Positions 1,309-35,565 of a stretch of 42,664 nucleotides of DNA are shown here, one piece after another. How positions within the stretch are numbered: position 1 is the first letter of the stretch; the number at the start of each line of letters is the position of its first letter. The notes under the pieces were generated by a model. The model was not told where the DNA came from. It searched no databases and saw only the letters and a list, made by a program, of their open reading frames with translations. Location: UHGV virus genome UHGV-0036008. One strand, written 5' to 3'. Both the position numbers and the translations under genes were made by a program. Source of the stretch: a virus.

Positions 1309-1571
1309 GGCACATCCCTGTGCCGCTGTTCTGTCAGAAGAACCCTGCCTTGTCGTTGATGTACTCCGCGTGGGTCTGGATATCACGCAGACATTTGCTC
1401 ACACCGACGATGTAGCAGAACATGGTGGTCAGCTCCGCCGCCGCACCCGATACGTCGTGCCCGTCTTCCTGTAACTGGTTCAGCAGATTCATCAGCAGTG
1501 AGTTCTCCGTCAGGCCGAGAACACCAGACGGCGAATGAATCAGGCTGCGGTAGCCGGGCTTCAGCGGGGCA
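1309..1571. repeat. Copy A of a roughly 260-bp direct repeat (about 95% identical to 33423..33690)
   Basis: Hand alignment: shared hairpin GGCACATCCCTGTGCC followed by the 3' end of an antirepressor-like gene. Confidence 0.8.
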
Positions 1572-2053
1572 CTGTATTCTTTTTTGTCTTCCAGCTTGAT
1601 CGCCTCCATAATGGCGGGCATGAATTTTTCAATTACCTGAGAGGCCTTAGATAAATCAGTTCCACCTGAGAGACGAACATCTCCACTGAGATTTGCGGGT
1701 TTTCTGTCGAAGTAGCAGTCTTCCAGTTTTTCGAACACTTCCCACGCCTGATCGGTTTCCAGCATTTTGGCATGGCGGGCTGCTCCGCGTTCTGTCCAGA
1801 GGATGAGGGAGCGAGTTTTGGGGGATACTGGATTTTGTGAGTTACTTAAAGTAACCCGTAAATTTTTCAGCTCATCGCCAACAACTTTGAAAAAGTGTTT
1901 TCCACAAACAAAGCGATCGGCATTGCGCGAATGGTTCACTTTGATGTTATTAGTGTCAGTGCTGTAAAGTCGCGCCAGTAGTTCGGTAGTGATGACGGGG
2001 ATGTGGTTATAGGTAATTGGGGAAAGAGATTCAACAGAAATTTGAGTAGCCAT
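1334..2053 (-). CDS. Antirepressor-like protein (ORF6N/Rha-type N-terminal domain fused to a shared C-terminal domain)
   Basis: N-terminus VITTELLARLY..NHSRNADRFVCGKHFF..LWTERGA pattern of phage ORF6N/Rha regulators; C-terminal 85 aa nearly identical to C-terminus of ORF 33447..34157. Confidence 0.55.
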   Translation of the reverse strand: MATQISVESLSPITYNHIPVITTELLARLYSTDTNNIKVNHSRNADRFVCGKHFFKVVGDELKNLRVTLSNSQNPVSPKTRSLILWTERGAARHAKMLETDQAWEVFEKLEDCYFDRKPANLSGDVRLSGGTDLSKASQVIEKFMPAIMEAIKLEDKKEYSAPLKPGYRSLIHSPSGVLGLTENSLLMNLLNQLQEDGHDVSGAAAELTTMFCYIVGVSKCLRDIQTHAEYINDKAGFF

Positions 2054-2202
2054 GGTTTTATGTCCTTTCGATTCGTTCAGATTACCCTGTGTTCAGCAGG
2101 GCGGTCAGGTACTTGAACACCGTCGAAAGTTCGGCCCGCATCCTTAGCCTTGCGGCTGTTTTTCGGTATACGCGCTACCCGACCATATCTGAAAAATGGA
2201 CA

Positions 2203-2232
2203 TAAAAAAGCCGCATGACTGACGGGTGCGGT
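2203..2232 (-). terminator. Rho-independent terminator (minus strand)
   Basis: Hairpin CCGCA(N11)TGCGG followed by a U-run on the minus strand, just downstream of ORF 2302..2547. Confidence 0.45.
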
Positions 2233-2301
2233 TTCCGCTTTCGAAGGTGTGTTCAGCACCATGAAGCGGAATATAGACCCGTTAATGCGGCGTTGTCAAT
2301 T

Positions 2302-2547
2302 TCAGGCTTCGTTTTCCAAGTTTATCCCCATTTTTTTGGCAAGACGACGCTGGTTTCTGGATAGGGGCATCGCCACCTTGTCATTGCCTATGTATTTGCT
2401 ATTTCTCATGTTACTAAGGTATGTGTTTACCTCTTCTTCACATGAGCTACCGTCACCATAACGGCCATACCGATGGTGCGCTTCTGCGGCAGTCATCCCG
2501 CCACCAATACTTTGTTTGGTTTTACGATTTCCGCTCTTTTTTGCCAT
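2302..2547 (-). CDS. Hypothetical small basic protein
   Basis: 81-aa ORF followed by an intrinsic terminator; weak RBS. Confidence 0.35.
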   Translation of the reverse strand: MAKKSGNRKTKQSIGGGMTAAEAHHRYGRYGDGSSCEEEVNTYLSNMRNSKYIGNDKVAMPLSRNQRRLAKKMGINLENEA

Positions 2548-2689
2548 CTGCTTACATACTCCATTCTTTCATTTCATGGACTAGCTATAGATATTCCTCT
2601 TGATGCGGCATTGTCAAATCATGCGGCACTGAGTCCGGCAATCTCTGCAATACCAATAGCGAGATAATCGCGATTCGTCAGGCGTGATT

Positions 2690-2965
2690 TTATTGCATAT
2701 GTTTTAGCTCCACTGAAGTTTTGATTTTATATGGGTTGCCTTTTACCTCAATAACACGATGAGGATCATTTTTTAGCTCTTCCGTAATCTTCCGTAATTT
2801 TCTAACAGCTGAACTGCGGTGTTTATAGCGGTAAGTTACAGTTTCTTTTCTCTGCAATACCTCATCATTGCAGTACTTAGTCAAAACCATGACGACTTCA
2901 AACCTGACGCCGTTGTGTGCAACCATGTTCATATGAACACAGTTGAATTTGCTAATCTGCTTCAT
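2690..2965 (-). CDS. Hypothetical protein, translationally coupled to the methyltransferase gene
   Basis: 91 aa from the internal Met of track ORF 2690..3085; ATG overlaps the upstream stop as ATGA. Confidence 0.4.
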   Translation of the reverse strand: MKQISKFNCVHMNMVAHNGVRFEVVMVLTKYCNDEVLQRKETVTYRYKHRSSAVRKLRKITEELKNDPHRVIEVKGNPYKIKTSVELKHMQ

Positions 2966-3612
2966 GCTGCACGTTCCCGCCCCTGGTTGTCTGTTGGTGA
3001 CAGCGGAGCATTGCTGAATGCATTTGTTAATCCGCCAATATCCAACGCGTATCCAGGGTGTAGTTGCACTGCCGGGTCTTCGCACTGATTACCCCAAACA
3101 TCGAAGCCATGAGACGTCTGGCGGGCGAACAGTTCAATGCGAGAAACATCGCCTAATAATTGCACAAGTTTTTCACGAACGATATCTGGCTTTCTTGAAT
3201 GCTCAAGCCGCGGTGCGGTAAATGACTGAACGATCCCTGCATTAATGCGCGTAGGTAGTTTTCCCTTTACCGCAAACAGGCAATCTTCACTATTGGCGCG
3301 AGTCATGTGTCCCATACCCATAACCAGTTTATCTGGTTGTCGACTACCACATTTTATCCACGTGAAGCCCTTCATGGTCATCAGACGGAATCCCCAGGCT
3401 TCAACAACTTTTAGCGCTTCGAGTGGTTGTGTTGGCACCCACCACATGGCCAACAGACAGTTTTCATCGGCCAAATCCCACACAGGAAGGCGGCAGATAT
3501 CCATCACACTCATAACCGGATATTTAAAACTGGCACCGCGATTACCATCTGCGGCTTTGTCCCGGTATACCCAGGGTGGATCTGCATAGATTAGTGTGTA
3601 TTTCTTAGTCAT
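2962..3612 (-). CDS. DNA N6-adenine methyltransferase, MT-A70/Dam-like (orphan)
   Basis: N-terminal TLIYADPPW motif (DPPW catalytic motif); no adjacent restriction endonuclease gene seen. Confidence 0.75.
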   Translation of the reverse strand: MTKKYTLIYADPPWVYRDKAADGNRGASFKYPVMSVMDICRLPVWDLADENCLLAMWWVPTQPLEALKVVEAWGFRLMTMKGFTWIKCGSRQPDKLVMGMGHMTRANSEDCLFAVKGKLPTRINAGIVQSFTAPRLEHSRKPDIVREKLVQLLGDVSRIELFARQTSHGFDVWGNQCEDPAVQLHPGYALDIGGLTNAFSNAPLSPTDNQGRERAA

Positions 3613-34157: not shown

Positions 34158-34313
34158 GGTGGTTATCTCCACTTAGTGATTTTAATCACCACCGCAACGC
34201 CAATTACTGGTGGTGAACTGGACAAGGTTGGCGTACCGGCCTAAGTGGTACCGGCGTCCTTTCGGACCCCTGCCCAGCCCACCATAATTCGGATATAGCT
34301 GTGCTTAACGCAT

Positions 34314-34420
34314 AAAAAAACCACGTCTGGCGTGGTATGCGCCACTTAGTAACCCGGGACGCCAATCCCGGCACTGGATTTTGCCAGTGCCCGATTACTA
34401 TGGCACAAGAGGAGTGCGAT
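34314..34420 (-). ncRNA. Candidate structured leader / attenuator or small RNA upstream of Bro-N antirepressor gene
   Basis: Minus-strand hairpins (CACTGG..CCAGTG; CCGGGA..TCCCGG) ending in terminator ACCACG-CCAGA-CGTGGT plus U7 at about 34314..34336; no ORF. Confidence 0.3.
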
Positions 34421-34426
34421 GTAAAT

Positions 34427-34535
34427 TTACCGCAAAGGTAATGATAAACGCGAAGAAATATTAAAATCAACCGTATTTGGTTGATTGCGTTTAACGCTTG
34501 ATCACCTGAAAGCAAGATATTACCTTTAAGGTAAT
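34427..34535. promoter_or_regulatory. Two ATTACC-N5-GGTAAT sites in divergent promoter region
   Basis: TTACCgcaaaGGTAAT (about 34427..34442) and ATTACCtttaaGGTAAT (about 34519..34535). Confidence 0.55.
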
Positions 34536-34554
34536 GTTATTGTGAGGAAAAGCA

Positions 34555-35283
34555 ATGGAAGTTTTCTGGATAGTTGTTGGTGTGGTTGCGGTGATTATTT
34601 ACGTTATCAACCAGAACAAGACTAAGATCTCTGATCGTACGGTCGTTAATCAGAACAAAACGATAAAGACCGAAGATGGGGAGGTAACGATTAGTCGTAC
34701 ACAGGTGATAGAACACACATCTACTCAGTTTCAAAAAACTGGAGGTAACGCGCCTGATATTTCCGTACCTCCTGCTTATGATAGTGCGGTAATCCAGACA
34801 TATTATAAACAGCAGGAGTTAGCAAAAGAGAGGCAACTGATTCAGCCAAAGCCGTTTACAGCTGAGCTTCCACCTGGAGTGTCAACGCGTCCGGCATATC
34901 ATGGAAGATTCCCTGGTGATGACATATCGTCTCAGTCATCTAAAAAAGCACCTCAGGCAGTATCAGAGCCAGCAAGAATACCTTCTGTATCGCCGCCAAA
35001 AGAAGAATCAGCTAACAGAGTTTCAAGTGGCCGCAAGCAGTGTTTGCGATGCAGAATAAACCTTCCATATGACAAATTCCGGAAATCGTCAAAAAATCCA
35101 GATGGATTGACTAAGTGGTGTGCAAGGTGCCTCGATGGCCCAAAGAATACACGCCATATGAAGTGGTGCCCAATTTGTAATGTCCGCAGAAAACGGACCA
35201 GCTTTTACCCTAATAATCAAAATGCGGACGGCTTAATGGCATGGTGCAAAACGTGCTGGGACGAGCACAAAGCGAAACGATAG
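34555..35283 (+). CDS. Membrane-anchored protein with duplicated C-terminal zinc-ribbon motif
   Basis: N-terminal TM helix (VFWIVVGVVAVIIYVI); two repeats of C-x2-C...N-x-DGL-x2-WC-x2-C. Confidence 0.5.
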   Translation: MEVFWIVVGVVAVIIYVINQNKTKISDRTVVNQNKTIKTEDGEVTISRTQVIEHTSTQFQKTGGNAPDISVPPAYDSAVIQTYYKQQELAKERQLIQPKPFTAELPPGVSTRPAYHGRFPGDDISSQSSKKAPQAVSEPARIPSVSPPKEESANRVSSGRKQCLRCRINLPYDKFRKSSKNPDGLTKWCARCLDGPKNTRHMKWCPICNVRRKRTSFYPNNQNADGLMAWCKTCWDEHKAKR

Positions 35284-35307
35284 GCCGCTCTTGCGGCCTT
35301 TAAATTT
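35283..35307 (+). terminator. Intrinsic terminator
   Basis: GGCCGCTCTTGCGGCC hairpin followed by TTTAAATTT. Confidence 0.5.
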
Positions 35308-35565
35308 ACCGGGTTTGTTTTCGTAATTGTTCGGCACAATAGTCGAGATGTGTTTGCAGATCCTGCATAGACATCTGTGAGCTGGTGACGTAGTTAATCA
35401 GTGCAGTCAGTTCGGCAAGTGGGCCATCGACATTAAATCCATCCTTATCGAGATCCCGGAGTAATTTCATCAAGTGCGATCCCTCCACCAGTGACCTGAC
35501 GCCTCCCGGCGTGTGAATCCTTTCGGTAAATCCGTCTTCCAGTGGATAGTGATACTGCTGCATCT
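35306..35565 (-). CDS. Stand-alone copy of the antirepressor C-terminal domain (86 aa)
   Basis: From internal Met with GGAGAAG RBS; YHYPLEDGFTERIHTPGGVRSLVEGSHLMKLLRDLDKDGFNVDGPLAELT...DLQTH aligns with C-termini of ORFs 1334..2053 and 33447..34157. Confidence 0.45.

Follow-up and report, generated by a model that had tools for sequence, protein, structure and literature searches.

What does a small protein domain do in a prophage that carries it three times, twice at the C terminus of a larger protein and once on its own? This question is raised by a stretch of viral DNA of 42,664 nucleotides (nt), UHGV virus genome UHGV-0036008 (the window, meaning this stretch at its full length), which is a phiV10/epsilon15-like (Uetakevirus) E. 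coli prophage. Two of its genes code for antirepressor-like proteins with ORF6N and Bro-N N-terminal domains, and a third codes for a protein of 85 amino acids (aa). Judged from its homologies, the lysis-lysogeny switch of this prophage is a LexA/Ant/Rep system of the type known from phage SPC32H, and the 80-aa module shared by the three proteins has the fold of the antirepressor Ant. An initial annotation, made from the sequence alone, had already singled out the module; three features go beyond it, namely, that the structures of the domain and of its partner have been solved, that the stand-alone gene has a LexA box, and that c4/isrK-type RNAs precede both fusion genes.

One C-terminal domain in three genes

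The genes, domains, and repeated elements concerned are the following.

1334..2053, minus strand: ORF6N/Ant fusion gene, 239 aa (Pfam PF10543, E = 2.8e-19)
1763..2020, minus strand: ORF6N domain, residues 12-97 (PF10543)
1337..1582, minus strand: Ant-type C-terminal domain, copy 1 (PDB chain 5D50_E, E = 5e-14)
33447..34157, minus strand: Bro-N/Ant fusion gene, 236 aa from the ATG at 34157 (PF02498, E = 1e-19)
33822..34109, minus strand: Bro-N domain, residues 22-117 in the 241-aa numbering (PF02498)
33450..33695, minus strand: Ant-type C-terminal domain, copy 2, identical to copy 1 (phrog_450, E = 4.3e-36)
1309..1324 and 33423..33438, minus strand: hairpin GGCACATCCCTGTGCC following the stop codons, identical at both sites and part of the repeated module
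33423..33438, minus strand: the hairpin after the Bro-N fusion stop, GGCACAGGGATGTGCC, part of the repeated module
35306..35563, minus strand: stand-alone ant, 85 aa plus stop, orthologue of SPC32H Ant (PDB 5D50_E, phrog_450)
6616..7200, minus strand: Rep, repressor of the prophage and the protein on which the Ant domains are presumed to act (match to 5D50_A)

A repeat scan of the window yielded three families of direct repeats, of which only one is long: positions 1333-1589 and 33446-33702 are 95% identical over 257 nt. The two copies form the 3′ ends of two minus-strand open reading frames (ORFs) with unrelated N-terminal halves, identified by Pfam as ORF6N and Bro-N. Alignment of the flanks revealed that similarity extends ∼35 nt beyond both stop codons and fades upstream inside the linker-coding region, so that the repeat with its hairpin runs over ∼1309-1589 and ∼33423-33702. 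The initial annotation had described a segment of ∼260 bp, ∼95% identical, that encodes one C-terminal domain on two proteins with unrelated N termini; this is borne out, and the repeat starts that it gave, 1309 and 33423, are exactly the start of the shared hairpin past both stops. The Bro-N fusion ORF extends over 33447..34172, with the ATG at 34157 as the likely start and a GTG at 34172 as an alternative.

The last 80 residues of both fusion proteins are identical. In the DNA of these 80 codons, there are eight differences, all of them synonymous (58 synonymous and 188 nonsynonymous sites), and the chance of finding none of eight at a nonsynonymous site if changes were random is (58/246)^8, or ∼1e-5. 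Rather than a fresh duplication, these are thus diverged copies, and the shared domain is under strong purifying selection in both. The third, stand-alone copy, announced earlier as diverged with ∼40% identity, is real as well: it is 42% identical to the fused type over 74 aa (E = 2e-17; 37-38% in the multiple alignment), and the same protein family, phrog_450 (annotated as “unknown function”), matches all three copies (E = 1e-47 for the stand-alone protein and ∼4e-36 for each fused protein). The least conserved stretch between the fused and stand-alone subtypes in the multiple alignment is the C-terminal helix. Over its full length, the ORF6N/Ant fusion also matches phrog_1760, “anti-repressor” (E = 1e-91).

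Among proteins of known structure, the stand-alone protein matched chain E of PDB entry 5D50 (“Anti-repressor protein”) with an E value of 2.7e-46 and ∼88% identity, and the fused-type domain alone matched the same chain with an E value of 5e-14. An AlphaFold2 (AF2) model of the fused-type domain had a predicted local distance difference test (pLDDT) score of 85.4, and a Foldseek search of the PDB with this model returned 5D50_G/H at the top (template modeling [TM] scores of 0.71-0.79, probability of 1.00), all remaining matches having E values of >5. The three copies align with one another, and the fused domain is predicted to share the Ant fold. In the full-length AF2 model of the ORF6N fusion, residues 10-115 form a confidently predicted N-terminal domain, which a low-confidence linker joins to C-terminal helices; pLDDT is <50 over linker residues 118-178, and the model does not give the relative arrangement of the domains. 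No Pfam or NCBIfam model covers the Ant domain, and a match to DUF724 (E = 0.009, below threshold) was discarded as noise.

PDB 5D50 contains Rep and Ant of SPC32H, a temperate Salmonella podovirus, in complex. The SPC32H Rep/Ant switch (5D50 and 5D4Z) was reportedly described by Kim and Ryu (J Virol 2013) and Kim et al. (PNAS 2016). The product of 6616..7200 in the window is a full-length homologue of chain A (“Repressor”) of the same complex (E = 4e-42 over residues 1-190). Like SPC32H Rep, it is made up of two helix-turn-helix (HTH)-type domains and a C-terminal tetramerization segment and has no S24 peptidase domain; Pfam returned HTH matches only, in agreement with the initial annotation, which had noted that the repressor lacks an S24 autopeptidase. 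Later papers summarize that Rep binds DNA as a tetramer and that an Ant tetramer binds two Rep dimers, breaking the Rep tetramer (PMC9638917), with Ant contacting the C-terminal tetramerization domain of Rep (PMC9986798). Since the window Rep is homologous to SPC32H Rep and such repressors are inactivated through antirepressor binding (PMC7380047), antirepressor-driven induction, suggested previously, is indeed plausible. So is the proposal that the module binds the repressor: the stand-alone protein is an orthologue of an Ant that was crystallized with its repressor, and the fused domain is a homologue by sequence and predicted fold.

The stand-alone gene and its LexA box

The ATG of ant at 35563 is directly preceded by GGAGAAG, and the end coordinate of 35565 given for this gene earlier is essentially correct. 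The surrounding control elements are as follows.

35585..35600: LexA box CTGTATGTTTATACAG, a perfect CTGT-N8-ACAG, 22 nt upstream of the ant ATG
35638..35633, minus strand: −35-like TTGCAA upstream of ant (sequence match)
35282..35299: terminator-like hairpin 3′ of ant, common to the convergent gene 34555..35283

The SPC32H ant promoter has an identical LexA box at identical spacing. In both phages, ant adjoins the tail-spike gene, as does the “hypothetical” p24 of phiV10, and the two Ant proteins have the same length. The two Rep proteins, as judged from the HMMER alignment rather than from an identity figure, have diverged far more than the Ants. SPC32H differs from the window in having the stand-alone gene only, with neither a Bro-N or ORF6N fusion nor a c4/isrK cassette. 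Antirepressors like Ant are produced once LexA has cleaved itself, and they bind the repressor and thereby inactivate it (PMC7380047, which cites, among other works, the SPC32H study of Kim and Ryu 2013). The stand-alone ant, Rep, and the LexA box together are the orthologue of a solved and characterized system, and the fusions are a variant of it with another architecture and other control. The earlier suggestion that the stand-alone protein acts as a minimal antirepressor or as a competitor holds in its first half, this being the experimentally characterized form of the family; a competitor role is superfluous.

A mechanically listed ORF, 35306..35686 (126 aa), would enclose the LexA box and the Shine-Dalgarno sequence of ant itself and is therefore a false extension of ant. 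The same 126- to 127-aa extension (35564..35686, minus strand, in the window) appears in many database entries (P0019, P0008-P0015), one cluster of which comprises 833 member sequences, and this start is probably miscalled. Database entries of the correct size are mostly named “hypothetical protein.”

LexA control of the two fusion genes was considered and rejected, as no LexA-like box (CTGT-N8-ACAG with ≤1 mismatch) was found in the 300 nt upstream of either gene.

Antisense RNA cassettes precede both fusion genes

The region upstream of each fusion gene has a layout of its own, here termed module A (ORF6N fusion) and module B (Bro-N fusion). Module B is composed as follows.

34397..34425, minus strand: promoter-like TTTACA-17-(TG)CATAGT, a consensus match only, which would start transcription at the isrK 5′ end
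34314..34390, minus strand: isrK-family RNA with its own terminator (Rfam RF01394, 67.7 bits versus a gathering threshold of 50)
34365-34359 and 34349-34342, minus strand: decoy sites a1 (TTGGCGT) and b1 (CTAAGTGG) in the isrK-like RNA
34206..34289, minus strand: C4-family antisense RNA (Rfam RF01695, 66 bits versus a gathering threshold of 45)
34248-34241 and 34228-34234, minus strand: C4 RNA sites b′ (loop CCACTTAG) and a′ (ACGCCAA)
34158..34205, minus strand: leader of the Bro-N fusion, with a2 (TTGGCGT, 34203-34197) and b2 (CTAAGTGG, 34176-34169)

Module A contains the following elements.

2270..2299, minus strand: strong promoter-like TTGACA-18-TATATT (11/12 positions)
2196..2262, minus strand: decoy-type RNA segment, assigned by analogy, with a1 (TGAACAC, 2255-2249) and b1 (TTCGAAAG, 2245-2238)
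2095..2184, minus strand: C4-like antisense RNA of the sRNA-Xcc1 family (Rfam RF02221, 64.2 bits versus a gathering threshold of 53)
2129-2123 and 2120-2114, minus strand: antisense sites b′ (CTTTCGA) and a′ (GTGTTCA)
2054..2095, minus strand: leader of the ORF6N fusion, with a2 (TGAACAC, 2095-2089) and b2 (TCGAAAG, 2071-2065)

In module B, two segments of the C4 RNA, the loop CCACUUAG and the single-stranded ACGCCAA, find perfect complements in the leader, CUAAGUGG and UUGGCGU, respectively. The former, b2, overlaps the Shine-Dalgarno sequence GTGGAG (GUGGAG in the RNA), and identical copies of both target sites lie inside the isrK-like RNA. In module A, CUUUCGA and GUGUUCA of the antisense RNA match UCGAAAG and UGAACAC of the leader, b2 overlaps the Shine-Dalgarno sequence AAGGA, and the sites again have copies in the upstream transcript, whose decoy-type segment ends in a weak terminator-like hairpin followed by a T-run. 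The matches are perfect over 7 to 8 nt in both modules. Complementarity of this extent was equaled by 1 of 20,000 shuffles of the C4 RNA for module B and by 272 of 20,000 shuffles for module A, and no cross-complementarity between the two modules was found. Pairing was scored as exact k-mer complementarity, with shuffled sequences as controls, and the loci were compared with one another. An RNA duplexfold analysis of whole RNAs was abandoned, as it ignores intramolecular structure and yielded long spurious duplexes even for mismatched pairs.

A comparable layout of isrK plus C4, or with an Xcc1-like RNA, is present in phiV10, TL-2011b, Tyrion, a Klebsiella phage, and HEMP4. Across six cassettes, the b sites read CTAAGTGG, ACTAAAAGG (phiV10 and TL-2011b), CTACA(A/G)AGG (CTACAAAGG, with TTGGTCT, in Tyrion and the Klebsiella phage), TCGAAAG, or CTTCAAAG (HEMP4), and the a sites read TTGGCGT, TTGGTCT, or TGAACAC. 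In all six, the b site is matched in the antisense RNA and in both flanks, with at least four specificities; the a site is matched likewise in five, HEMP4 showing a partial match of 5 to 6 nt only. Because the pairing segments covary in a compensatory manner across the six cassettes, this sequence comparison provides strong evidence that the pairings are functional. The isrK/C4 cassette as such was found in 255 phage records, many Shiga toxin (Stx) phages included.

Distribution and shuffling of the Ant-type domain

An Ant-domain profile, searched exhaustively, retrieved only 62 of 1.84 billion representative proteins (E ≤ 0.001), which makes this a narrow family. Most of them are stand-alone proteins of ∼85 aa; the longer matches have a C-terminal Ant domain behind a Bro-N, AntA, Phage_pRha, or ORF6N domain (Pfam). 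The identical Ant-domain sequence occurs in E. coli behind Bro-N, ORF6N, and AntA (P0137 for AntA), and, conversely, the ORF6N domain of the window (85-89% identical) is elsewhere joined to P22AR_C or found in a 185-aa form. Since the Ant domain stands behind four kinds of N termini and ORF6N is combined with other C termini, shuffling goes both ways, with the junction in the flexible linker; the domain shuffling postulated initially is confirmed and now includes AntA and Rha N-terminal domains besides Bro-N and ORF6N. Two stand-alone Ants (P0113 and P0110) are mosaics that combine segments of both subtypes. This census of architectures is based on the exhaustive representative search with Pfam, plus a full-length query; a word-indexed search with the 80-aa fused-type domain was uninformative, since all 18 proteins that it retrieved were short and none was a full-length fusion.

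No more than 34 phage records were found to contain the fused-type domain, and every one of them is related to the epsilon15/phiV10 group. Members from Salmonella, SPC32H included, have the stand-alone gene only, most members from E. coli, Klebsiella, and Enterobacter have a Bro-N fusion besides the stand-alone gene, and three Ant-domain copies, as in the window, are also present in TL-2011b and HEMP4.

Several related loci showed variations on this theme. In HEMP4 (locus L007, ∼1956..2800), an AntA/Ant fusion behind an Xcc1-like RNA (CTTCAAAG) occupies the site of the ORF6N/Ant fusion of the window, and phiV10 has a DUF1382 gene instead of ORF6N/Ant at this integrase-proximal site, which is a hot spot of cassette swapping. 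TL-2011b (locus L004, 4419..5603) has a P22-type immI region too (Arc-like repressor, 314-aa Ant, and a sar RNA match), and four antirepressor-type genes can thus coexist in one phage of the group. The Klebsiella phage ST512-KPC3phi13.3 encodes a 151-aa fused-type “anti-repressor” behind isrK and C4, as well as adjacent genes of 86 and 85 aa (locus L006, 858..1466) with the size and position of stand-alone ant. In the phiV10 reference genome, the C-terminal Ant domain is hidden by a frameshift between p23 and p22.

The initial annotation had also pointed out that the repeat pair could drive a 32-kb deletion by homologous recombination. This is mechanistically possible, but derivatives were not seen: a chimeric query for the predicted int/Bro-N-fusion junction matched in part in 556 genomes, yet the junction itself was in none of 5,426 complete E. 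coli genomes.

Comparison with known antirepressor loci

The closest characterized relative of the Bro-N fusion is the “anti-repressor” ORF4 of vB_EcoP_ZX5, which is 82% identical overall and identical in its C-terminal 165 aa; the Rep regions of ZX5 and the window share 98.7% DNA identity. ZX5 differs from the window in having two Ant-domain genes, not three. Overexpression of ORF4 lowered the lysogen titer from 1e9 to 1e6 and repressor mRNA by 75% (PMC9782041). The Bro-N domain was the only one recognized in the ZX5 paper (PMC9782041), and the ZX5 record lists stand-alone ant as “hypothetical.”

Control of the fusions resembles the immI regions of P1 and P7, in which the antirepressor is kept from being expressed by c4 RNA (Citron and Schuster 1990, cited through PMC8201110 and PMC7313666). 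Common to both are a C4-family RNA upstream on the same strand, an a′/b′ pair with flanking a/b sites, a b2 site over the ribosome-binding site, and a specificity that shifts by compensatory substitutions. Unlike the window, where the ribosome-binding site of the fusion itself is targeted, P1/P7 immI has an icd-like ORF between the RNA and the antirepressor gene, and the module A RNA belongs to the Rfam family sRNA-Xcc1 rather than to C4.

A second parallel is the isrK-orf45(STnc1160)-anrP locus of Gifsy-1, in which an isrK-family RNA with a terminator is followed by a read-through mRNA that encodes an antirepressor-like protein; this mRNA is translationally silent until the short IsrK acts, and expression of the isrK-controlled AnrP induces the prophage (PMC4825925). 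Like the window with its stand-alone ant, Gifsy-1 has a separate LexA-controlled small antirepressor. It differs in the presence of orf45 and in the downstream effect described, AntQ toxicity. In the APSE phages of Hamiltonella, c4 and isrK lie upstream of a Bro-N gene and sRNA-Xcc1 lies upstream of an ORF6N gene (PMC7313666), an arrangement known there from the co-occurrence of RNAs and genes and described with no link to an Ant-type C-terminal domain or a Rep partner.

The small antirepressors GfoA, GfhA, and Tum are comparable to Ant in that an uncleavable repressor is inactivated by a small LexA-released protein, which can act in trans on other prophages (PMC3121763). Unlike Ant, which is a tetramer (PMC9638917), they seem to work as dimers (PMC3121763), and no sequence relationship to Ant was detected.

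A probable switch with one SOS input and two RNA-gated inputs

We consider it probable that Rep is the common target of all three proteins and the Ant fold their means of acting on it, with the stand-alone protein serving as an SOS input and the fusions as RNA-gated inputs or as a second immunity region. The mechanism of the SOS input, the action of Ant on Rep, and the ZX5 ORF4 phenotype are taken from the literature; our own analysis contributes the homologies to the Ant/Rep complex, the predicted fold, the LexA box, the RNA matches with their covariation, and purifying selection. For stand-alone ant, DNA damage would lead to cleavage of LexA, synthesis of Ant, inactivation of Rep, and induction. 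Each fusion cassette begins with a constitutive-looking promoter, which is followed by a short terminated RNA (a1, b1), a C4-family antisense RNA (a′, b′), and the leader (a2, b2). By analogy with P1 and Gifsy-1, the C4-type RNA of a lysogen would pair with a2 and b2 and block translation of the fusion. In the manner of IsrK, the upstream short RNA would release translation by titrating the C4-type RNA or remodeling the leader. The pairing sequences of the two cassettes differ, and no cross-talk between them is expected. Once made, the fused proteins would bind this Rep via their shared C-terminal Ant domain, with the Bro-N, ORF6N, AntA, or Rha N terminus as an accessory, and the cassettes would supply inputs other than the SOS response or act as a second immunity region.

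Several observations weigh against this assignment. PAS61 has the same Rep region (98.4% DNA identity) and the stand-alone copy only, and the Bro-N/Ant fusion of phiV10 is frameshifted (locus L002, 549..1228) and split into p23 (194 aa) and p22 (29 aa), so that the fusions are dispensable. Binding of the fused type to Rep is extrapolated from a domain that is only 37-42% identical to the stand-alone type, and the ZX5 ORF4 experiment was an overexpression in which binding was not demonstrated (PMC9782041). In module A, the likeness of the upstream RNA to isrK of Gifsy-1 is one of analogy: Rfam returned no isrK match, and the RNA folds no better than shuffled sequence (z = 0.35). Moreover, three-frame translation of positions 34150-34320 revealed no icd- or orf45-like ORF between the C4 RNA and the Bro-N fusion, only a 14-codon ORF inside the C4 RNA, and a cassette without such a coupling ORF may therefore differ in its mechanistic details from P1 or Gifsy-1.

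Other roles for the fused copies have to be weighed against the same evidence. They could be anti-immunity or cross-talk weapons that hit the Rep of a related resident prophage, with the same activity in another role, and this overlaps with the explanation given above; the matching C4-type RNA of the resident would block them, constituting a second immunity region as in the immI regions of P1/P7 and P22. The cassettes have the layout of P1 immI, their C4 specificities diversify among near-identical phages, and the two in the window are orthogonal, which is the pattern expected of immunity determinants. Antirepressors that act in trans on noncognate repressors are documented in Salmonella (PMC3121763), phiV10 p23 is annotated as a “putative anti-immunity protein,” and conservation of the stand-alone Ant at 88%, while the Reps diverged much further, suggests that Ant tolerates divergence of Rep. 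However, the fused-type domain is near-invariant in E. coli phages that share one Rep type, and no heterologous target is evident. We regard anti-immunity as a possible but less likely role.

It is unlikely, in our judgment, that the Ant fold of the fusions is a mere oligomerization (tetramerization) module for DNA binding by Bro-N and ORF6N, making them regulators of transcription or host takeover that leave Rep untouched. Ant is a tetramer (PMC9638917), Bro-N and ORF6N/KilA-N are regarded as DNA-binding domains, and the ZX5 authors regard the role of Bro-family proteins as unclear (PMC9782041); in addition, the same ORF6N domain occurs with other C termini (P22AR_C and the 185-aa form), and the C-terminal helix is the part least conserved between subtypes. 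Yet overexpressed ZX5 ORF4 counteracts lysogeny and lowers repressor transcription (PMC9782041), a family as narrow as this one (62 of 1.84 billion proteins and 34 phage records) fits a specific partner better than a generic oligomerizer, and the mosaic Ants P0113 and P0110 imply that segments of the two subtypes are interchangeable. Least credible of all is a view of the fused copies as redundant, decaying passengers whose repeat serves mainly as a substrate for the 32-kb deletion; we give it very little weight. Direct repeats of 257 nt and 95% identity are enough for RecA-dependent recombination, and the frameshift in phiV10 and the absence of fusions from PAS61 agree with decay, but the differences between the copies comprise 0 nonsynonymous versus 8 synonymous changes, the regulatory RNAs are intact with covarying pairing sites, and the deletion junction was in none of the complete E. 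coli genomes, though parts of the query matched.

A bolder form of the preferred reading, in which three proteins converge on Rep, is that the Ant fold is a portable, tetramerizing, Rep-specific module wired to three independent sensors, namely, LexA and two orthogonal decoy/antisense RNA switches. We advance this tentatively and think it less than likely. If true, signals besides DNA damage could set off induction, or anti-immunity toward related prophages, free and fused subunits might assemble into mixed tetramers that integrate inputs or anchor Rep-bound Ant on DNA, and the variable C-terminal domain of the common Bro-N/ORF6N/AntA/Rha “antirepressor” proteins would have its first defined biochemical role.

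These four N-terminal domains are among the commonest phage “antirepressor” annotations, and the roles of their parts are rarely known. Tying the variable C-terminal domain to a solved antirepressor/repressor complex yields a testable assignment, in which the C-terminal part would bind Rep and the N-terminal part would be accessory. With one repressor, three Ant-domain proteins, LexA, and two orthogonal c4/IsrK-type switches, the prophage is a compact natural system that is useful for asking how prophages combine SOS and non-SOS signals and diversify secondary immunity specificities. A family model for the Ant domain would improve annotation, given that neither Pfam nor NCBIfam has one and that ant is entered as “hypothetical” or with a false start. 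The component ideas (modular antirepressors, c4-type control, isrK loci, and several antirepressors per prophage) are established, and near-identical genomes are public; the relation of the fusions to SPC32H Ant has apparently not been pointed out in the literature searched. To a specialist in modular phage switches, the result is neat rather than surprising.

Prophage context and neighboring genes

The window is 97-98% identical over long stretches to ZX5, PAS61, phiv142-3, phiV10, TL-2011b, and HEMP4. The prophage sequence starts just within attL and reaches the attR core ATTGAGTGGGAATGATT (41093-41109), which is the guaA 3′ end according to the ZX5 paper (PMC9782041). After the attR core, there is a second P4-type integrase gene (41307..42614, plus strand) with ∼74% DNA identity to the prophage's own int (50..1300), which suggests that another integrative element occupies this site in tandem.

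The tail-spike gene next to ant (35759..38878, plus strand) encodes a complete endosialidase with End_N_terminal, End_beta_propel (E = 1.7e-232), End_beta_barrel, and End_tail_spike domains and a Peptidase_S74 intramolecular chaperone, joined to an epsilon15/phiV10-type N terminus. Because the endosialidase is complete, the prophage is probably specific for the K1 (polysialic acid) capsule.

The stretch that separates ant from the isrK/C4/Bro-N cassette is entirely noncoding in phiV10; in the window, it contains a gene for a 242-aa protein (34555..35283, plus strand) with two zinc-ribbon-like CxxC repeats (weak Stc1 match), a full-length match to phrog_6762, and weak matches to endonuclease VII/HNH-like PHROGs; it looks like an inserted moron. 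Two more moron-like genes separate the virion genes from the Bro-N fusion. One (31584..32435, plus strand) encodes a 283-aa protein with a signal-peptide-like N terminus and no Pfam match, and the other (32719..33300, minus strand) is a 193-aa ORF matching phrog_5954 (unknown function); identity of the latter with the YafO-family toxin found at the same place in TL-2011b was rejected (E = 1.4). A tRNA-Arg gene (anticodon TCT) is located inside the prophage at 16043..16119 on the minus strand, and ZX5 carries a tRNA gene too (PMC9782041).

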